Shown here: positions 3,691 to 60,893 of the stretch, in pieces
Numbering within the stretch: position 1 is the first letter of the stretch
How the letters are laid out: every line of letters starts with the position of its first letter
From: Escherichia phage APCEc01
Sequence record: NC_029091.1
Reading direction: 5' to 3' (one strand)
DNA length: 64,000 bases
The notes under the pieces: model-generated
Told to the model about the DNA's origin: nothing
Seen by the model: only the letters and a program-made list of their open reading frames with translations
The model's database searches: none
Program-made: the position numbers and the translations under genes

Positions 3691-4272
3691 ATGACATGTC
3701 AATCTGAACTTCAAGAACGTGAATACCTAACAAATCTGATTGATAGCAAATTCACCCGCCAAGAACAAAACATTCTCTGGGCTTGCACCGATTCTAAGGA
3801 AGACCCGGATTTCCACTATGAATTAGACCATCTTGTTCGTAAGCATATGACTTCTACAGCACCAGTAGAACTCTACCGTGGTGTAACTCCAGAAGAAGTA
3901 GAACGTCTTTCCCTTCTTTCTGTTGGATGCCATTGGTCTCCTGGACGAGTAACGTCGTTCACAACTGATTTCAGTACAGCTCGTCAATTCTCCGGGAGAT
4001 GGGAATATCAGACGTACACTATTCTTAGTCTCAGGAATGCTCCATTCATTTTTGATTACTACCAAAATATGGTTAACATTGTACTCGCCGGAAAGAACCC
4101 TAAGCATGTTATGGAAGAAACTCGTATCGATGTCCTAGATATGATTGAATCTGAACAAGAGTACATGGTCTCAGGCATCTCTCGATTTGAGATTGTGGAA
4201 ATTGAAGACTTAGAATATGACCCTTTATCTCGATTATACAAAATCATTCATTTGAAAATGTTGAATTTTTAG
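3691..4272 (+). CDS. modB: ADP-ribosyltransferase, ModA/ModB family
   Basis: 193 aa; R-S-E triad elements: LYRG, STS-like FTTDFSTA, E-Q-E (EQEYMVSG); position matches T4 modB. Confidence 0.6.
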   Translation: MTCQSELQEREYLTNLIDSKFTRQEQNILWACTDSKEDPDFHYELDHLVRKHMTSTAPVELYRGVTPEEVERLSLLSVGCHWSPGRVTSFTTDFSTARQFSGRWEYQTYTILSLRNAPFIFDYYQNMVNIVLAGKNPKHVMEETRIDVLDMIESEQEYMVSGISRFEIVEIEDLEYDPLSRLYKIIHLKMLNF

Positions 4273-4329: not shown

Positions 4330-4938
4330 ATGTTTATGCCGTATAACGAGTGTGAAATTGAAGAAATGGTTCGTCGTGCTCAAAACCCCGAATATCAAGA
4401 TGTATTGCAGTACGAAATTGATAGTCAATTCAACGATAATGAACAAAGCATCCTTTGGCAGTGTATGGAAAACAAGCCAGACTGTATTCAACAGGAGTTA
4501 AGTTCAATCGTTCGTAGAAATTGGACGTCTTCTGTTCCTGAGACAATGTATCGTGGAATCTCTAAGAAAACTATGGCCACACTTGATGATAAAGGCATTG
4601 GTAGTATTATTAAATTTGACAGAGTAATGAGCTTCAGCCCAGTGTTCGGTGTAGCACGTAACTTTGCTTCGTATAATTTTTACGGAACATTTAATATGTT
4701 CTGCATCAAAGATGCACCATTTGCTTTCAACTTCCGTGAACATATGCTTAACATGATTCTGGCTGCGCCATCTTGTGAGTTCAATGGAGCTTTCCCTGAA
4801 GCGACAAGACGGTCTAATGCTAGACTTATATCCGACGAATGTGAATTTATGCTCCCTATAGGGACTACACTGCGTGTAGATTCTATTATTCAAGATGGAC
4901 GTTATACAATCTGGAATCTGTCTATTGTCAGTTACTGA
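4330..4938 (+). CDS. modA: ADP-ribosyltransferase, ModA/ModB family
   Basis: 202 aa; MYRG, SFS, E-C-E-F motif; tandem to the preceding paralog. Confidence 0.6.
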   Translation: MFMPYNECEIEEMVRRAQNPEYQDVLQYEIDSQFNDNEQSILWQCMENKPDCIQQELSSIVRRNWTSSVPETMYRGISKKTMATLDDKGIGSIIKFDRVMSFSPVFGVARNFASYNFYGTFNMFCIKDAPFAFNFREHMLNMILAAPSCEFNGAFPEATRRSNARLISDECEFMLPIGTTLRVDSIIQDGRYTIWNLSIVSY

Positions 4939-52998: not shown

Positions 52999-53295
52999 GT
53001 TTTAGGTGATTCGCTACCTTAAGTGCGGCTAGAAAATCGAGGAGCCGTCGAACTGTCTGATTAATGATTTGCGAATCATTATAGTTTTAAGGCCCCGGCA
53101 GTTTTACGGTGTACCTCTTGAATGTATTTTGTACTATCACGCGTCAGAAAAAGGTTATCTGTCTAAGTCGTGGTTGGTATGATGACGGGTTTATGGTTAT
53201 CCTGTCGGTAAATATTCAAAACCTAAGTACCCCTTTGAGGGCTTTCGCAGGCAATGCCAATAAGTCCTGCATTTTCATTTAAAAGAGAATTTATA

Positions 53296-53472
53296 ATGGC
53301 AAAACAAGTTAAAGCAAAGAAAGCAGTTGAAAAGAAAGTTGGTGATTCTAAACGCGCTGGCTACAAGCGTGGGTCGAACTCTCGTATCAATCAAACTGTT
53401 GAGAAGATCATGCGCCGAGCACGTGCGGTTCTTCGAGATGATGCTTCTCGTTTTGGAAAGGTTGTTGCATAA
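53296..53472 (+). CDS. hypothetical basic small protein
   Basis: 58 aa from ATG 53296 (the track ATG at 53254 has no RBS); Lys/Arg-rich. Confidence 0.4.
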   Translation: MAKQVKAKKAVEKKVGDSKRAGYKRGSNSRINQTVEKIMRRARAVLRDDASRFGKVVA

Positions 53473-53477
53473 TTTTA

Positions 53478-53499
53478 GGGAGACTTCGGTCTCCCTTTT
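53478..53499 (+). terminator. rho-independent terminator
   Basis: GGGAGACTTCGGTCTCCC plus TTTT; identical to the hairpin at 38467. Confidence 0.75.
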
Positions 53500-53602
53500 G
53501 TGCGTTTAGGGCGGAAAAAGTTTAAAAAGATGTTTACTCTCCTGTAGGATGTGTTACTATAGACTTGTACCACCTAATCAATAAAACAACCTGGAGAACA
53601 AA

Positions 53603-53971
53603 ATGAAAATCAATCTGAACTCATACATCAAATGTAAAGACCATGATGGTTATAAAGCTATCGAAATTAAAGAATTCCAGTGGATGTTATACAAAGAGCA
53701 ATTTGAGTTCGTAGGTTGTATGACCCCTGAAGGTCCTTCTGATGATTTCTCTTGGAAAATTGTGTTAGCAAACTTTTTCACAGGTGACACATACGAATTA
53801 AAAACTATTATTACCGGTAAAATTCGTTCAGAAACATATGTTGACGAAGAAACTGGTTACTCTGAAGATGTTACATGGTATCAAAATGGACGCATTACCG
53901 CAGATAACCTGATCGAAAAAATGAAAGCCAAAGGTGTTTTAAATTTAGACAATTGGATTAAAGTTGCATAA
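53603..53971 (+). CDS. hypothetical protein
   Basis: 122 aa. Confidence 0.5.
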   Translation: MKINLNSYIKCKDHDGYKAIEIKEFQWMLYKEQFEFVGCMTPEGPSDDFSWKIVLANFFTGDTYELKTIITGKIRSETYVDEETGYSEDVTWYQNGRITADNLIEKMKAKGVLNLDNWIKVA

Positions 53972-54045
53972 AACAGTTTACTTTGGTACAGGTTATGTTA
54001 TTATAGACCTGTACCAACAAACAACTTAAACATCTGGAGAATAAA

Positions 54046-54411
54046 ATGAACTACACCAACTTCGAACGTAAATATGTTTCTAACGGTATTGCTGGTTCTT
54101 CTGAAGTTATTTGCTTATGGAAACACGAAAACGGTACAGTTTGTGAAATCGAACAGTGCATGACTCCTAATTACGTTTATATGCGATTTGAAAATGGTAT
54201 CACGGTTTCAATCACGATGGAAGGTTCAAATTTTAAAATTGCATTAGATGATGATTTCCGTCAGCGTGATTTAGGTACTCATCCTTGCTGGAATGGTGTT
54301 AATCGTAAACTTCTGGTTAAAACTTGGATTCGTCATATCCTGAGTAACCGAGCTAAACCTGAACATCTTGAAGCAATCTTTGATGTAGTTCTTAACGAAT
54401 TTGATATCTAA
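54046..54411 (+). CDS. hypothetical protein
   Basis: 121 aa. Confidence 0.5.
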   Translation: MNYTNFERKYVSNGIAGSSEVICLWKHENGTVCEIEQCMTPNYVYMRFENGITVSITMEGSNFKIALDDDFRQRDLGTHPCWNGVNRKLLVKTWIRHILSNRAKPEHLEAIFDVVLNEFDI

Positions 54412-54446
54412 ATTAATTGGGAGCCGAAGCTCCCACTGAGGAAATT

Positions 54447-55061
54447 ATGTTTAAAGTTAATACTTTTTATAAAATGAATTTTAAAAATGGGGATATTACT
54501 CCACACCTTAAAAACATGTTCTCATATGACCTTATTGAGCCTTTTGAAGTTTTAGAAGTTACTGATGCCGGCTCAGTTTGTGAAATTAGAACTTCTGAAG
54601 GTAAAATTTATCAGGCCGGTGTTGGTAAATTCAGTAATTGTTTTACTTTAATATTCTCGACCGATTTAGATGAGCATTTTATTGAATGTCCTAACCCTAA
54701 GGTCTATGAAGTTCCACATCAAGAAACTAAGAAAAATGGACCGCACGAATATACGAAGGTTGAAACTCCTCACGGCGTGATGTGGCGACATAACTCTCCT
54801 TTTGGAAGTAAAGGAACATTTGCTCAACTGGCTAAGCCCTACGACGATGAAAAATATGTAGTAGTCCTTTTATCTGAACAGGGTACTCAAGACCGTGGAT
54901 GCCAGCGTTCTGGTTTATTGAGTGAACTCGAAGCTCATAACCTAGCACGTGAATTCGTTGAGAAAAATCCTGGTTCTGAAGCTCTAGTCATGAAAGCAAT
55001 TACTCAATATATCACTGCTCAACCTGTTGTTCATCCGGTAGAAATTAATTTCATTAAGTAG
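54447..55061 (+). CDS. hypothetical protein
   Basis: 204 aa from ATG 54447 (track start 54417 is TTG inside a hairpin). Confidence 0.5.
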   Translation: MFKVNTFYKMNFKNGDITPHLKNMFSYDLIEPFEVLEVTDAGSVCEIRTSEGKIYQAGVGKFSNCFTLIFSTDLDEHFIECPNPKVYEVPHQETKKNGPHEYTKVETPHGVMWRHNSPFGSKGTFAQLAKPYDDEKYVVVLLSEQGTQDRGCQRSGLLSELEAHNLAREFVEKNPGSEALVMKAITQYITAQPVVHPVEINFIK

Positions 55062-55115
55062 TGTACATCCAAGGACGGATTAGAGTATAATGATTTCTTT
55101 AGTAAGTGGAAAAAT

Positions 55116-55313
55116 ATGAAATTTTTAATAGCACAAACAGTCCAATTAAAAGGTGTTGGAATCCCTGGGATGATTTTTAAAGTTCTCAACGAATTTAAAA
55201 CTGCCGCTGGAATTATCAATGAAGCGTATGCTGTTCAATGGGTTGATGGGACTTCTGACATACGTATGGGTAAAGAGTTATCTCCTATTAAAGGGTTGAA
55301 ACATGTTGAATAA
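55116..55313 (+). CDS. hypothetical protein
   Basis: 65 aa. Confidence 0.45.
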   Translation: MKFLIAQTVQLKGVGIPGMIFKVLNEFKTAAGIINEAYAVQWVDGTSDIRMGKELSPIKGLKHVE

Positions 55314-55521
55314 ATTAATCCAGAAATTGTTTGGTACGGAAATGATTGAAGTTACTTATCGTGTAACCGACGTTTTTCCATATTACGCGGAAAACCGTTT
55401 AGAACCATACGTTACGTCAATTAAAATGCCTAAAAATGACAGAAATTTATCTATCGAAGACCGTATACCTGGATACGGACATTGGGCTGATGTTGAAATT
55501 ATAAGTGTTAAAGATGTCTGA
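55303..55521 (+). CDS. hypothetical protein
   Basis: 72 aa. Confidence 0.45.
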   Translation: MLNKLIQKLFGTEMIEVTYRVTDVFPYYAENRLEPYVTSIKMPKNDRNLSIEDRIPGYGHWADVEIISVKDV

Positions 55522-55972
55522 ATTAGAAATAAGAAGTAATTTCAAATGGCCGTCATGTGCATTAAGTAACTTTGCTCAATGGCCTTTTGTTATGGATGGT
55601 ATTCAATTCGGAGGTCTTGAAGGATTTCTCCAAGGATGTAAGGTGAAAAATGTTGAACAACAAAGACGTATATTTGGGTTGTCTGGATTGGCTGCACAGC
55701 AAGCTGGAAGGTCTTACGCAAGAGCTCAGGACCGTGGGACTCTCTTCTGGTTAGGAGTTCCATTTTCAAGATACTCCGAAGCGTGGAAAGAATTATACAC
55801 AAATGCATATTTTGAAGCCGCGATCCAAAACAAGGGGTTTCGTGATGCCTTACAAGCCTCTAAAGGAAAAATTTTGAAGCACAGCATGGCCAGCCACCTA
55901 ACAAAAGATGATACAATACTAACTGAAGATGAATTTATTGACGTGTTAAACCTATTAAGAGACTCTTTATGA
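55514..55972 (+). CDS. NADAR-domain protein (YbiA-like)
   Basis: 152 aa; LSNFAQWPFVMDGIQFGGLEGFLQGCKV aligns with E. coli YbiA FSNFAAWPIKVDGKTWPTSEHYFQAQKF. Confidence 0.6.
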   Translation: MSELEIRSNFKWPSCALSNFAQWPFVMDGIQFGGLEGFLQGCKVKNVEQQRRIFGLSGLAAQQAGRSYARAQDRGTLFWLGVPFSRYSEAWKELYTNAYFEAAIQNKGFRDALQASKGKILKHSMASHLTKDDTILTEDEFIDVLNLLRDSL

Positions 55973-56793
55973 AGCCTACTATTTTGACTGATATTGATGG
56001 TGTATGTTTAAGCTGGCAATCTGGACTTCCTTATTTTGCCCAAAAATATAACCTTCCATTAGAACATATTTTAAAAATGATTCAGGACGAAAAATTTATT
56101 TCTCCTGGTAAACTGTTCAATACCGACGATAACCTTGGTAAACAATTAATAGAAAAATATAATAGCTCTGATTTTATTCGTTACTTAGCGCCTTATTCTG
56201 ATGCTCTTCGAGTTATCAATAAACTAAAAGAAGACTATAATTTTGTAGCCGTGACGGCGCTAGGTGATTCAATTGATGCTCGATTGAATAGACAATTTAA
56301 TTTGAATGCTTTGTTCCCAGGCGCTTTCTCTGAAGTAATGATGTGTGGTCATGATTCTTCAAAGGAACAATTATTCGAACTAGCTAAAACAAAATATAAC
56401 GTAATTTGTTACGTTGACGATTTAGCTCATCATTGTGACCATGCGGCAGAAATTCTTAATGTACCGATTTATTGGTTGGCTCGTGGTGAACGTGATGCCA
56501 TTCCTCGTACTGCACAACGTGTACACACGTGGGATGATATTGAATCTCGTTTGGTTCTGCCTAAGAATAATTCAGATTCAGATCGTGAAGACCTTTTAAA
56601 ACGATTGGCGGATTTGCTTAAAGAATCTGGTGCAACAAGTCCAGGTGCATGGCCCAATCAAATTGGTGGCCCCTCGACAACACGTACTCCATATACCTGG
56701 CGAACCCAAGGACCAACTGATATGCAGCCGTGGTGGACGATTCAAAACTTTCCTTTAGATTCGTCTAAATGGACTTGGTCTATAAATTGTTAA
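55969..56793 (+). CDS. HAD-superfamily phosphatase, 5'(3')-deoxyribonucleotidase-like, with unusual C-terminal extension
   Basis: 274 aa; motif I ILTDIDGV and motif IV YVDD; C-terminal roughly 85 aa are Trp/Pro/Thr-rich; ATGA coupled to the NADAR gene. Confidence 0.55.
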   Translation: MKPTILTDIDGVCLSWQSGLPYFAQKYNLPLEHILKMIQDEKFISPGKLFNTDDNLGKQLIEKYNSSDFIRYLAPYSDALRVINKLKEDYNFVAVTALGDSIDARLNRQFNLNALFPGAFSEVMMCGHDSSKEQLFELAKTKYNVICYVDDLAHHCDHAAEILNVPIYWLARGERDAIPRTAQRVHTWDDIESRLVLPKNNSDSDREDLLKRLADLLKESGATSPGAWPNQIGGPSTTRTPYTWRTQGPTDMQPWWTIQNFPLDSSKWTWSINC

Positions 56794-56802
56794 GGGTTAA
56801 TT

Positions 56803-57072
56803 ATGTTTGTAGTTCATGATATTACAGATGGCAAAAATACCACACGTGACTACGGTCACGTTAACATGTTCTTTCGAGACTGGCCATTGTTTCGTTCAGT
56901 AAAAGACGCAGAAATATTTAAAGAGTGTGTTGAACAAGGGTTCATCTACATTTCAGAATACTATGTTGAAGGACTCGGTAAATGGATTACAACTTATCAG
57001 AAAACGCTGAAATCGCTTCTAGATGAAGTGGCTTATAATAGAACCGTAACCAAAATCGAGGACATCAAATGA
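56803..57072 (+). CDS. hypothetical protein
   Basis: 89 aa. Confidence 0.45.
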   Translation: MFVVHDITDGKNTTRDYGHVNMFFRDWPLFRSVKDAEIFKECVEQGFIYISEYYVEGLGKWITTYQKTLKSLLDEVAYNRTVTKIEDIK

Positions 57073-58562
57073 TTTTAGATATTTTAAACCAAATAGCTGC
57101 GATCGGTTCTACTAAAACAAAACAGGAAATCCTTAAGAAAAATAAGGACAACAAATTACTTGAACGTGTGTATCGTTTAACATATGCACGTGGTATCCAG
57201 TATTATATTAAGAAATGGCCAGGACCAGGTGAAAGGTCTCAAGCGTATGGTCTTCTTGAATTAGATGACATGTTGGATTTTATTGAGTTCACATTAGCCA
57301 CTCGTAAACTCACTGGTAATGCTGCAATTAAAGAGCTCATGGGTTATATCGCTGATGGTAAACCTGATGATGTAGAAGTCCTTCGTCGTGTAATGATGCG
57401 CGACCTTGAAGTAGGTGCTTCAGTGTCTATCGCGAATAAGGTGTGGCCTGGACTTATTCAATTGCAACCACAGATGTTAGCATCTGCATATGACGAGAAA
57501 TTGATTACTAAAAATATTAAATGGCCCGCATTTGCCCAATTAAAAGCAGATGGTGCTCGTTGTTTCGCTGAAGTTCGCGATGATGGTGTTCAATTCTTTT
57601 CTCGTGCCGGCAATGAATATCATGGTCTTACTCTATTAGCGGATGAACTAATGGAAATGACTAAAGAAGCTCGTGAAAGACACCCTAATGGGGTTTTAAT
57701 CGACGGTGAATTAGTTTACCATTCATTTGATATTAAAAAGGCTGTGAGCTCAGGAAATGACCTGTCGTTCTTATTTGGTGATAATGAAGAATCCGAAGAA
57801 GTACAAGTTGCGGACCGTAGCACTTCAAACGGTTTAGCAAATAAATCTCTTCAAGGGACTATTTCTCCTAAAGAAGCTGAAGGTATGGTTCTTCAAGCCT
57901 GGGACTATGTTCCTTTAGATGAAGTCTATTCTGATGGCAAAATTAAAGGTCAGAAATACGATGTTCGTTTTGCTGCTCTTGAAAATATGGCTGAAGGCTT
58001 TAAACGAATTGAGCCAATTGAAAATCAGTTAGTTCGTAATCTTGACGAAGCTAAAGTGGTTTATAAAAAATATGTTGACCAAGGTCTTGAAGGTATTATC
58101 CTTAAAAACCGTGATTCGTATTGGGAAAACAAACGTTCTAAGAACCTAATTAAATTTAAAGAAGTTATTGATATCGCTTTAGAAGTTGTAGGATACTATG
58201 AACACTCTAAAGACCCTAACAAATTAGGTGGTGTCGAACTCGTATCACGTTGTCGTCGTATTACAACCGATTGCGGTTCAGGTTTTAAAGATACAACTCA
58301 TAAAACAGTTGACGGTGTAAAGGTTCTTATTCCTTTAGACGAGCGTCATGATTTAGACCGTGAACGATTAATGACCGAAGCTCGTGAAGGTAAATTAATT
58401 GGACGTATCGCTGATTGTGAATGTAATGGTTGGGTTCATTCTAAAGGCCGTGAAGGCACTGTAGGTATTTTCCTCCCAATTATTAAAGGGTTCCGTTTTG
58501 ATAAAACAGAAGCGGATTCGTTTGAAGACGTATTTGGACCGTGGTCCCAGACAGGTTTATAA
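57069..58562 (+). CDS. 30: ATP-dependent DNA ligase
   Basis: 497 aa; size and position match T4 gp30 (487 aa); contains a ligase motif-I-like KADGAR (motif identity is my reading, not checked). Confidence 0.85.
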   Translation: MILDILNQIAAIGSTKTKQEILKKNKDNKLLERVYRLTYARGIQYYIKKWPGPGERSQAYGLLELDDMLDFIEFTLATRKLTGNAAIKELMGYIADGKPDDVEVLRRVMMRDLEVGASVSIANKVWPGLIQLQPQMLASAYDEKLITKNIKWPAFAQLKADGARCFAEVRDDGVQFFSRAGNEYHGLTLLADELMEMTKEARERHPNGVLIDGELVYHSFDIKKAVSSGNDLSFLFGDNEESEEVQVADRSTSNGLANKSLQGTISPKEAEGMVLQAWDYVPLDEVYSDGKIKGQKYDVRFAALENMAEGFKRIEPIENQLVRNLDEAKVVYKKYVDQGLEGIILKNRDSYWENKRSKNLIKFKEVIDIALEVVGYYEHSKDPNKLGGVELVSRCRRITTDCGSGFKDTTHKTVDGVKVLIPLDERHDLDRERLMTEAREGKLIGRIADCECNGWVHSKGREGTVGIFLPIIKGFRFDKTEADSFEDVFGPWSQTGL

Positions 58563-58750
58563 TGAAAGCTTATTTAGAAACAGTTATTGTAGCTAAGAAG
58601 GATGGTGGAGATGTTTCCACCTCTTGCTCTCAGATTATATTAGATTTTCCTAATAACGATTCCTATCATATTTTTATGGACAATTTCGATAAGTACGAAA
58701 AAGGCTCTAATTTTGAAGTTTATCGTACTTTGCTTCCGATTGTGGATTAA
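58562..58750 (+). CDS. hypothetical protein
   Basis: 62 aa; TAATG overlap with the ligase stop. Confidence 0.4.
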   Translation: MKAYLETVIVAKKDGGDVSTSCSQIILDFPNNDSYHIFMDNFDKYEKGSNFEVYRTLLPIVD

Positions 58751-58769
58751 GAGCCTTCGGGCTCTTTTT
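58751..58769 (+). terminator. rho-independent terminator
   Basis: GAGCCTTCGGGCTC plus TTTTT. Confidence 0.7.
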
Positions 58770-58805
58770 GGCATAAATATAAATTATTACTAAAAGGAAA
58801 ACACT

Positions 58806-60893
58806 ATGTCTGAACAATTAAATGAAGTGTTTGAATCTGAAGGCAGTCTTCCTGTCGTCAATTTGAACCCTAAAGCTAAAGTTCCACAAGTCTGGAAAAT
58901 TGGTGATATCGATACAAATATTGTAGTTCGTTTATTCTCTTACCTTTCCGAAGGCGACGCTGTAAAACAAGTTAAACTTGGCGACAAATACGCTCATGTT
59001 GTTATTATGAGTCTGTCTGAAAAGGGTAATCTCGCTGAATTGAAAAATGGCCTTGGTCCTGCTCCTATTGATGCAATCAACACCATTTTCAATACAGTAT
59101 ATGAACAAGTTAAAGCTCTTCGTATGGATGCAGTTCTGTTCCGATTCCCTACCAAGAAATTGAAAGGACGTGGACAACAGCTTCAAACTCTTCTTGCTCG
59201 TTTAGTTTCTACTAAAACCGGTGGTCGTTTTAAAGTATTGTCGGCAATGTATCAATTCACAGGTAAACACACCTATGTGATGATGGTTCGTAAAAATGCC
59301 AACATTGAAGATATTAAAGGCATCCCTAACATTAACACAGAGTTGTACACGAAAGTAGATTCTGATGTTGGCGAAGTTTATGTGAGTAAAAAGACCGGCG
59401 AAAAAGTCACCAAAGAAACGGCTATCGCTGGTTCTATTGCTGCTGTAGAAGAAAAACGTAAAGATAAGCCTGTTATTGCTCGTACTAAAATTTCTCGTCG
59501 TGCTATTGCCGCAAGCCAATCTTTAGAAGCTGACCGCCAAGAAGGTGAGTTATTCCAGAAATACGAAAATTCTGCTAAAGAAGTTAGTGGCCCGGCTACA
59601 GCCGAATTACTTCCTGAAGCATATGAAATCGTACTAGCCCAAGCATCATCCACAGCAAAAGGCACTTTAGTTGCTGATATCGAAAATAAGATTTATAATC
59701 GTATTGATGAATCCTTTAGATTTGCTGATGAAGTTTCTTATGGTAGTGTTATTAAGCCAACTTTAGAAAAGTTTGCTAAGAAAATTAAAACTGAAAAAAC
59801 AACATCTGTTAAAGCATTAGCTGCTTTTGTTGAAGCTGCAAACGAAATTGCGGACTCTATTAAAGACGAATGGTTTGAAGATTTTAGACGTGATAATTTC
59901 CAACTGGCCGACGATGTTTTAGCTGAAGTATCTGAAAAAACTTGGAAACAACGTAAATCAGCGTTCTTGTCTAATGTGATGTATACTTATGCACGAGAAT
60001 CGGCTAGAGGCACCTTTAATATAACAATGAATCGGGACCCTAAACAATACTCTGTTGCTGAAAAACGAGCTATTCGCGAATATGCCTCTTCTGCGTATAC
60101 CGATATCAATAATATGTTGTTAGGCCGTTATAAACCGGATTTTTATGATGTTGCAGATGAAGATGAAGTTAAACGCGCTATTGATGGTCTTGATTCGGCG
60201 TTTTTAAATGGAGACCGTTTACCTGAAGGACTAACGTTGTATAGAGCCCAGTCTATCAGAATGCCTATTTACGAAGCAATGGTTAAAAATAAGGTATTCT
60301 ACTTCAGAAACTATGTTTCTACTTCATTAGCTCCTATTATTTTTGGTGGGTTTAAAGAGAACGTTGCCCTTGGACTTGCTCCTGAAGAAGTTCGCAAAGA
60401 GCTTAACATTGACAATAATGACGAAGGTGTTACTATTTCTCCTAGCCTGGCACGTACCGCTATGCATGCGCCAGAACAAATTCGTGTTAATGTTGGATGG
60501 GCCATTGATGGCGCTCATAAAGTTAACGTGATTTATCCCGGACAGTTGAGTAATCACCCTAATGAGCAAGAAATTATTTTGCCTAGAGGCATTCTCTTGC
60601 AGATAAATAAAATTACAGATGCGTCATCTGACACTGGTGCAGGTTTAGAATCCAACCTTAAATTTATTCAAGCTGAAGTCATGTCCTCGGACCAGTTGGA
60701 CGAAGCTGTCATTTACGATGGTGATGTTCTCATGGAAACAGGCGAGGTAGTTGCTATGACGGGTGAAATCGAATCAGATGAGCCGGTATCTTTTGCCTCA
60801 TTTGTAGAAAAAACTAGTGCACCTAAAGGTTTGAAATTGTTAGCATCTTTAATGGATTTAGAATCAGTTCCGTTTAAATTTATCCAAGGATAG
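58806..60893 (+). CDS. alt: Alt ADP-ribosyltransferase (virion-packaged)
   Basis: 695 aa (T4 682 aa); R-S-E elements LYRAQS, YVSTSL, NEQEIILPRG; position next to gene 30. Confidence 0.8.
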   Translation: MSEQLNEVFESEGSLPVVNLNPKAKVPQVWKIGDIDTNIVVRLFSYLSEGDAVKQVKLGDKYAHVVIMSLSEKGNLAELKNGLGPAPIDAINTIFNTVYEQVKALRMDAVLFRFPTKKLKGRGQQLQTLLARLVSTKTGGRFKVLSAMYQFTGKHTYVMMVRKNANIEDIKGIPNINTELYTKVDSDVGEVYVSKKTGEKVTKETAIAGSIAAVEEKRKDKPVIARTKISRRAIAASQSLEADRQEGELFQKYENSAKEVSGPATAELLPEAYEIVLAQASSTAKGTLVADIENKIYNRIDESFRFADEVSYGSVIKPTLEKFAKKIKTEKTTSVKALAAFVEAANEIADSIKDEWFEDFRRDNFQLADDVLAEVSEKTWKQRKSAFLSNVMYTYARESARGTFNITMNRDPKQYSVAEKRAIREYASSAYTDINNMLLGRYKPDFYDVADEDEVKRAIDGLDSAFLNGDRLPEGLTLYRAQSIRMPIYEAMVKNKVFYFRNYVSTSLAPIIFGGFKENVALGLAPEEVRKELNIDNNDEGVTISPSLARTAMHAPEQIRVNVGWAIDGAHKVNVIYPGQLSNHPNEQEIILPRGILLQINKITDASSDTGAGLESNLKFIQAEVMSSDQLDEAVIYDGDVLMETGEVVAMTGEIESDEPVSFASFVEKTSAPKGLKLLASLMDLESVPFKFIQG

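Follow-up and report, generated by a model that had tools for sequence, protein, structure and literature searches.

A predicted AdfN orthologue and a nucleotidase-like HAD phosphatase encoded by overlapping genes in the DNA ligase block of Escherichia phage APCEc01

Positions 55514 to 56793 of the window, a stretch of 64,000 nucleotides from Escherichia phage APCEc01 (NC_029091.1), hold two overlapping genes, which an earlier note made from the letters of the DNA had read as a candidate functional pair of a NADAR-domain protein and a HAD nucleotidase. Our analysis indicates that the first of them very probably encodes the anti-DarT1 protein AdfN and the second, gp30.2, an independent phosphatase resembling the NT5C nucleotidases, the overlap between the two genes being mere packing. 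The DarT1 toxin of the host would ADP-ribosylate guanines in the phage DNA, and AdfN would cleave the guanine-ADP-ribose bond through E36, K43 and H123, allowing replication to proceed. gp30.2 would act separately as a Mg-dependent HAD phosphatase with an Asp nucleophile and a small helical C1 cap, and both genes would belong to the early block 30.5-30.4-30.3-30.2-30.1-30 (DNA ligase)-alt.1-alt. A functional pairing of 30.3 and 30.2 was not supported.

The locus and its gene block

The DNA of the window was 99.9% identical to that of Shigella phage JK36 (Mosigvirus, Tevenvirinae), indicating that the phage is a T4-like Mosigvirus, and the annotation of JK36 names the two ORFs gp30.3 and gp30.2. 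Both ORFs were present with the coordinates, the ATGA overlap and the motifs that the earlier note had given for them. Gene 30.3 (adfN) occupies positions 55514..55972 of the + strand and encodes 152 aa when read from ATG 55514, or 155 aa if the GTG at 55505 is counted as the start. Gene 30.2 (55969..56793, +; 274 aa) is the ORF directly after it, and the two share the ATGA at 55969..55972 of the + strand, where the ATG of 30.2 (55969-55971) lies over the TGA of 30.3 (55970-55972). On the upstream side, gene 30.4 (55303..55521, +; 72 aa, phrog_2042) shares its last 8 nt with the beginning of adfN. Gene 30.1 (56803..57072, +), encoding a DUF3045 protein (Pfam PF11243, E 1.4e-26), lies between 30.2 and its downstream neighbour, gene 30 (57069..58562, +), which encodes an ATP-dependent DNA ligase according to the annotations of JK36, T4 and RB69. 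The 30.1/gene 30 junction is also an ATGA overlap, at 57069. The order of the block in JK36 is 30.6A-30.5-30.4-30.3-30.2-30.1-DNA ligase-alt.1-alt, and the blocks of T4 and RB69 are alike.

Matches to gp30.3 and gp30.2 were obtained by tblastn in 1509 and 1438 phage records, respectively. These matches in about 1,450 to 1,500 phage records, together with the family-profile scores, indicate that 30.3 and 30.2 are real genes and not chance ORFs. A promoter-like site agreeing with the consensus at 10 of 12 positions was located in the gap upstream of 30.5 (55062..55091, +), and no terminator-like site was found on the + strand between this site and the end of gene 30. This weak candidate may be the start of a transcription unit running from 30.5 to 30; in 52-61 kb, promoter-like and terminator-like sites were no commoner than in shuffled sequences. 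The Rfam search detected no RNA family in 53000-59000, and the base composition of 52-61 kb showed no anomaly and no sign of recent insertion.

gp30.3 is a predicted orthologue of AdfN

The 152-aa ORF contains the NADAR-core motif LSNFAQWPFVMDGIQFGGLEGFLQGCK and matched the Pfam family PF08010 (Phage_30_3, "Bacteriophage protein GP30.3") along the whole profile (positions 1-138 of 138), at a score of 232.1 bits (cut-off 36, E 2.1e-69). One homologue of gp30.3 (P0163) carries an additional PF08719 match. A search of PDB sequences with the single gp30.3 sequence returned no match, and a profile of 53 homologues reached E. coli YbiA (E 0.006) as the sole match of note, so that the NADAR fold had to come from structure prediction. 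When the AlphaFold2 model (pLDDT 93.7) was compared with the PDB by Foldseek, the top three matches were the only three NADAR structures, those of YbiA (2B3W), of the Phytophthora protein PnNADAR with ADP-ribose (8BAU) and of the Geobacter lovleyi NADAR (8BAT), and all further matches had E values above 2. The residues E36, K43 and H123 were invariant in the 53 homologues; in the window they are encoded on the + strand at 55619-55621, 55640-55642 and 55880-55882, respectively. H123 is of the phage type, since phage NADARs carry His in place of the catalytic Glu or Asp of the last strand (Glu in YbiA, Asp in BC4488) (PMC11125620, PMC11543638). The earlier note had taken this ORF for a NADAR protein and had set the fold in a structural prediction as a check; the PF08010 match, the modelled fold and the three conserved residues uphold this assignment. 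As judged from the model, gp30.3 has the NADAR fold, and its catalytic residues are intact.

In T-even phages, resistance to DarTG1 was traced to gene 30.3 by Johannesman et al. (Nat Commun 2025, PMC11825919), who renamed the gene adfN and found AdfN to be both necessary and sufficient as the factor by which these phages counter DarTG1. Plaquing of T4 or T2 on DarTG1 hosts was abolished in the absence of adfN, purified AdfN removed ADP-ribose from DarT1-modified DNA, and the protein was impaired by E36A, by K43A and by an RB69-like truncation (PMC11825919). Cihlova et al. 2024 independently demonstrated hydrolysis of guanine-ADPr, and not of thymine-ADPr, in vitro (PMC11125620), and the thymine-specific DarTG2 is not countered by AdfN (PMC11825919). 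T4 AdfN did not rescue uninfected E. coli from DarT1 toxicity, and its rescue of phages outside the T-even group was partial; a T-even-specific factor required for full activity is proposed by the authors (PMC11825919). RB69, the type Mosigvirus, is sensitive to DarTG1 because a frameshifting T insertion truncates its AdfN, which ends 15 residues early, and this phage was rescued by ectopic AdfN (PMC11825919).

The gp30.3 protein of the window was 96% identical to T4 gp30.3 over the full length, with E36 and K43 at matching positions. The T insertion of RB69 was absent from the window adfN, the full 152 aa were retained, and the C-terminal helix (aa 138-151 in the AlphaFold2 model) was intact. 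Given its identity to the T4 protein, gp30.3 is predicted to be AdfN, an orphan DarG1-like NADAR with guanine-ADP-ribose DNA glycohydrolase activity. Since its adfN is intact and lacks the RB69 frameshift, the phage is predicted by orthology to be resistant to DarTG1. The anti-DarT role proposed in the earlier note is thus borne out for the guanine-modifying DarTG1, which the T4 orthologue counters, but not for the thymine-modifying DarTG2, and it had already been published. That phage NADARs undo DarT-type ADP-ribosylation of DNA is known from work published in 2023-2025, and therefore the NADAR half of the locus brings no new biology. The NADAR/anti-DarT reading shows, however, that the right mechanism could be reached from sequence alone.

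gp30.2 is a putative HAD phosphatase

The motifs TDIDGVC and YVDDLAHH were found in the 274-aa ORF, and all four HAD motifs are present, namely I (DxD), II (T/S), III (K) and IV (DD). Their codons lie on the + strand at 55990-55992 (D8), 55996-55998 (D10), 56254-56256 (T96), 56362-56364 (K132) and 56416-56421 (D150-D151). In 51 close homologues D8, D10 and K132 were invariant and T96, D150 and D151 were at least 90% conserved; conservation of D8, D10, K132, T96 and D151 extended to 61 distant relatives. The AlphaFold2 model, made with the 51 homologues, was confident at residues 1-222 and predicted a Rossmannoid HAD fold. In this model a C1-capped HAD core (residues 1 to about 195) is followed by a helix (203-221) and by a W/P-rich tail (223-274, nt 56635-56790) that is predicted to be disordered. 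The protein matched phrog_420, whose function is unassigned in the database, with E 1.5e-77. Curated HAD profiles remained below their cut-offs (HAD_2, 16 bits vs 23.8, E 0.014; NCBIfam TIGR01428, 12.7 vs 125.4), and the membership of gp30.2 in the HAD superfamily therefore rests on fold and motifs. On this footing gp30.2 can be predicted with confidence to be a C1-capped HAD phosphatase of a phage-specific family.

A search of PDB sequences gave a sub-threshold match to the mouse cytosolic 5'(3')-deoxyribonucleotidase (2JAO, E 0.11). The Pfam family NT5C (PF06941) was not matched by the window protein, and weak matches were seen in only four of the 51 close homologues. A HMMER scan of 1.84 billion representatives yielded 1082 relatives of gp30.2, and a set of 62 family members, made up of the 61 distant relatives and the window core, was scanned against Pfam. 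NT5C was matched by 26 of these 62 (best E 4.2e-10), more than any other Pfam family, and one distant relative (P0345) passed the NT5C cut-off (36.8 bits vs 24.8). In the HMMER alignments the nearly invariant W16 of gp30.2, eight residues past the nucleophile, aligned with a Phe of the cytosolic deoxyribonucleotidase (dNT), a residue with a base-stacking role in that enzyme. The structural matches of gp30.2 did not single out the dNTs from other HADs. A profile search of a 5.8-billion-protein set returned only phage homologues, without names or Pfam domains. Fusion proteins with a gp30.2-like domain (P0262, P0308, P0206, P0250) contained no informative partner domain, and a literature search gave no relevant paper on gp30.2 or on phage HAD deoxyribonucleotidases.

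The label of deoxyribonucleotidase-like HAD phosphatase that this ORF had been given can thus be kept at the level of remote homology, the 5'(3')-deoxyribonucleotidases being the annotated family nearest to it. The fold, the four motifs and the NT5C-linked relatives point to remote homology, but the window protein has no NT5C match of its own, and membership in that family is not supported, the link to NT5C being transitive only. The small helical C1 cap suggests a small phosphomonoester as the most likely kind of substrate for gp30.2, and the family link to NT5C makes a (deoxy)nucleoside monophosphate the best guess.

Relationship between 30.3 and 30.2

In the window, ORFs of 60 aa or more meet in an ATGA at ten junctions, those of 30.3/30.2 and 30.1/ligase among them. 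Overlaps were present at five of the eight junctions that lie between 30.6A and alt in JK36 and at about half of those in the matching 10 kb of the T4 genome. Translational coupling as proof of a shared function was rejected, since overlaps are generic in these genomes; the 30.3/30.2 overlap comes from the head-to-tail packing of T4-type early genes, and not from any joint work of the two products.

The neighbourhood of gp30.2 was determined in 73 loci flanked on either side by 3 kb or more, which are not independent lineages, so that the counts are descriptive. In 66 of the 73 loci a DNA ligase gene lay downstream of 30.2 at a distance of up to 1 kb, whereas 30.3 abutted 30.2 in 18 and was within 6 kb in 36. 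Among 80 viral contigs retrieved with the gp30.3 profile, the overlapped 30.3-30.2 pair occurred in T-even-like phages only; 30.2 was 0.7-1.2 kb from 30.3 in six contigs, and most of the others had no 30.2 within 6 kb. The order is gp32-30.2-x-ligase in Aeromonas phage 65, 30.3 is missing from the surroundings of 30.2 in Klebsiella phage KP179, and Acinetobacter phage ZZ1 keeps the order 30.3-30.2-ligase-alt. The neighbour that 30.2 has conserved is DNA ligase and not the NADAR gene. Over 1400 T4-like genomes have kept gp30.2, a nucleotidase-like phosphatase with DNA ligase as its steadiest neighbour. Where 30.3 and 30.2 are close, 30.3 is always upstream and on the same strand, and this fixed order, together with the near-equal genome sets (1509 vs 1438 records), may reflect an ancestral link between the two genes.

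The effect of disrupting either gene on growth in the presence of DarTG1 was taken from the HIDEN-SEQ transposon screen of T4 (Extended Data Table 6, sheet "Control_vs_DarTG1"; bioRxiv 10.1101/2025.11.20.689424), which covers one plasmid-borne DarTG1 system in one host. Two genes were significant in this screen, 30.3 and 30.4. Insertions in 30.3 were lost on DarTG1 (log2FC -7.25, adjusted p 0), whereas 30.2, with 71 TA sites, was neutral (log2FC -0.12, p 0.61) (bioRxiv 10.1101/2025.11.20.689424). In the absence of DarTG1 adfN was non-essential, with 27 of 28 sites hit; 30.2 was non-essential on K-12 (72 of 72 sites hit) and neutral in M9 vs LB (-0.10) (bioRxiv 10.1101/2025.11.20.689424).

Alternative explanations

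In the scheme of a coupled NADAR and HAD pair, the ADP-ribose freed by AdfN, or a nucleotide signal related to it, would be processed by the phosphatase, in counter-defence (DarTG, Thoeris) or in ADP-ribose housekeeping. The ATGA overlap kept in T4, Mosigvirus and JS98-like phages (in RB69 as sequence) and the nearly identical genome-level distribution of 30.3 and 30.2 are in agreement with such a scheme, as are the further T-even factor that T4 AdfN reportedly needs for full activity (PMC11825919) and the intact 30.2 of RB69, in which ectopic AdfN works. On the other hand, 30.2 insertions were neutral under the very conditions in which 30.3 insertions were lost, overlapping junctions are normal in this block, and the 30.3-30.2 adjacency has been lost in most lineages while 30.2 stays beside the ligase. 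Moreover, HAD phosphatases require a phosphomonoester, which free ADP-ribose and cyclic signal nucleotides do not offer unless first cleaved. These results make the coupled pair very improbable, and the claim of the earlier note does not stand; nothing was found in support of Thoeris-related or other nucleotide-signal degradation by the two proteins. Still harder to credit is that AdfN manages the ADP-ribosylation carried out by the phage's own Alt, ModA and ModB, and not counter-defence. The alt gene (58806-60893, JK36 annotation) does lie about 3 kb downstream in the block, the order 30.3-30.2-30-alt recurs in Acinetobacter phage ZZ1, and two Mod-like genes are present in the window (~3748-4203 and ~4336-4929). 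However, T4 tolerated adfN insertions except on DarTG1, and NADARs target guanine-ADPr in DNA whereas Alt and Mod target proteins according to annotation notes; this suggestion too was left with nothing in its support. The three ADP-ribosyltransferases on which it had been based are approximately correct: Alt is present, and the two Mod-like genes are 30-38% identical to T4 ModA/ModB.

With AdfN as an anti-DarT1 protein and gp30.2 as an independent phosphatase, the role of the latter may be sought in the DNA ligase/replication module, where it would clear by-product nucleotides or act on dNMP pools, like the dNMP nucleotidases of modified-base phages. The 66 loci with a nearby ligase include homologues of 25% identity (L162, L163) and span three Straboviridae subfamilies, and the NT5C-like affinity of the family and the invariant W16 aligned with the Phe of cytosolic dNT point in the same direction. 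We nevertheless regard this role as rather unlikely: the order of core genes in T4-like phages often reflects inheritance rather than function, 30.2 is dispensable in both LB and M9 whereas the ligase is essential, and no paper on gp30.2 was retrieved.

gp30.2 was also considered as the T-even cofactor of AdfN; its distribution fits, and the candidate was ruled out by the neutral 30.2 insertions in the T4 transposon screen on DarTG1. The screen thus speaks against gp30.2 as the missing helper of AdfN and hints weakly at gp30.4, which was found in T-even-like loci only, RB69 included. Gene 30.4 was the sole further DarTG1-conditional gene of T4 (log2FC -1.79, adjusted p 0.014) and was neutral in M9, and 30.5 gave a non-significant -3.0 on DarTG1 (bioRxiv 10.1101/2025.11.20.689424). 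The simpler explanation for the effect of 30.4 is polarity on adfN, and the value of 30.5 would be in line with a gradient of polarity. The authors of the screen argue, however, that such effects are weak in general, and 30.1, which precedes the essential ligase gene, tolerated insertions (bioRxiv 10.1101/2025.11.20.689424). That gp30.4 is the T-even helper required by AdfN, with gp30.2 as a separate NT5C-like nucleotidase of the ligase module, has an outside chance of being correct.

Comparison with known systems

The closest counterpart of the window gp30.3 is its orthologue T4 AdfN, which has the same length of 152 aa, the same E36/K43/H123, C-terminal helix and position, and the same overlaps with 30.4 and 30.2; the window allele differs by six substitutions (K11R, E89P, I120V, M125I, H128G and D139A). 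The adfN gene of RB69, from the same genus Mosigvirus, is truncated by a frameshift, whereas the window allele is intact. DarG1, which serves as the NADAR antitoxin in DarT1-NADAR systems (G. lovleyi, 8BAT; Schuller et al. 2023, PMC11543638), resembles gp30.3 in the NADAR fold, in the catalytic Glu and Lys and in the hydrolysis of guanine-ADP-ribose, as known for the AdfN family. Unlike DarG1, gp30.3 is without the N-terminal extension, has a His for the Asp of the last strand and has no DarT gene adjoining it. The best structural match of gp30.3, the housekeeping NADAR YbiA of E. coli (2B3W; E 7.4e-5, TM 0.67), shares the SNF...E...K core but only 18% identity, and carries a Glu where gp30.3 has the His in the last strand. 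YbiA has been assigned a role in the metabolism of riboflavin intermediates (PMC11825919, PMC11125620).

T4 gp30.2 is the orthologue of the window gp30.2; the HAD cores of the two are about 85% identical and the N-terminus and motifs are the same, but the C-terminal tail has diverged, and the overall identity is 73%. A GIEYLYNRPT-type tail motif is present in T4 gp30.2 and in many homologues from Klebsiella phages, and absent from the tails of the window protein and of RB69. With the 5'(3')-deoxyribonucleotidases (NT5C PF06941; cdN/mdN, 2JAO, 6G2N; S. epidermidis 3BWV) gp30.2 shares only 15-18% identity, and it differs from them in an additional helix at the C-terminus and in its W/P-rich tail of about 50 residues, which is predicted to be disordered.

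Genes around adfN

Gene 30.4, a 72-aa ORF lying just 5' of adfN (55303-55521, + strand), overlaps the start of adfN by 8 nt. In the transposon screen of T4, 30.4 was significantly depleted on DarTG1 (log2FC -1.79, adjusted p 0.014), adfN and 30.4 being the only genes with significant depletion, and 30.4 was neutral in M9 (bioRxiv 10.1101/2025.11.20.689424). Gene 30.4 is confined to T-even-like phages, RB69 among them, and AdfN reportedly requires an additional T-even factor (PMC11825919). The depletion of 30.4 on DarTG1 could be due either to a polar effect on adfN or to a role of its own, in which case gp30.4 would be a candidate for the T-even factor of AdfN.

Further upstream, a 214-aa ORF (54417-55061, + strand) with no match in Pfam is found where T4 and RB69 have gp30.6, of about 95 aa. 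In phage JK36 this ORF is named gp30.6A and starts at an ATG 30 nt further in, giving 205 aa. Since the 214-aa ORF sits where gp30.6 would be, the slot immediately upstream of the adfN block is variable. Inside gene 30.3 the T4 annotation places an out-of-frame gene, 30.3', of 75 aa. The equivalent frame within adfN of the window (55650-55754, + strand) is open for only 34 aa, indicating that 30.3' is not conserved; judged from the reading frame, 30.3' is probably not a real gene.

The adfN-30.2 junction and gp30.2

In the RB69 locus (L003 6225-6268), a frameshift in adfN also shifts the adfN stop upstream, to a point 42 nt before 30.2 begins, and the ATGA coupling is therefore lost. Despite this loss RB69 30.2 is still intact, its product sharing 97% identity with gp30.2 of the window.

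The C-terminal tail of gp30.2 (residues 223-274; 56635-56790, + strand) is predicted to be disordered. Alignment of gp30.2 homologues (A4) revealed hypervariable, disordered tails rich in P, W and Y, and many homologues of about 200 aa in total have no tail at all. A short motif close to the C-terminus, G(T)GIEYLxN(R)QPT, is common to T4 and many Klebsiella-phage homologues, whereas the tails of the window and RB69 proteins lack it. The motif may be loosely similar to the sliding-clamp-binding peptides of LDFLF type that occur in T4 proteins. A gp30.2-like HAD domain also occurs joined to other sequence in some metagenomic proteins (P0017, P0262, P0308, P0206 and P0250); in P0017 the partner is DUF3045, the gp30.1 domain, and the long N-terminal regions of P0262 (591 aa) and P0308 (660 aa) gave no Pfam match.

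Comparison with the ADP-ribosylation genes of T4

Two Mod-like ADP-ribosyltransferase paralogues (about 3748-4203 and 4336-4929, + strand) share only 30-38% identity with T4 ModA and ModB, a divergence far greater than that of adjacent-block genes such as adfN (96%). Besides AdfN, T4 encodes the macrodomain protein Tk.4 (tk.4, outside this window), renamed AdfM and reported to be the anti-DarTG2 factor (bioRxiv 10.1101/2025.11.20.689424); T-even phages therefore have one eraser for ADP-ribose linked to guanine and another for ADP-ribose linked to thymine.
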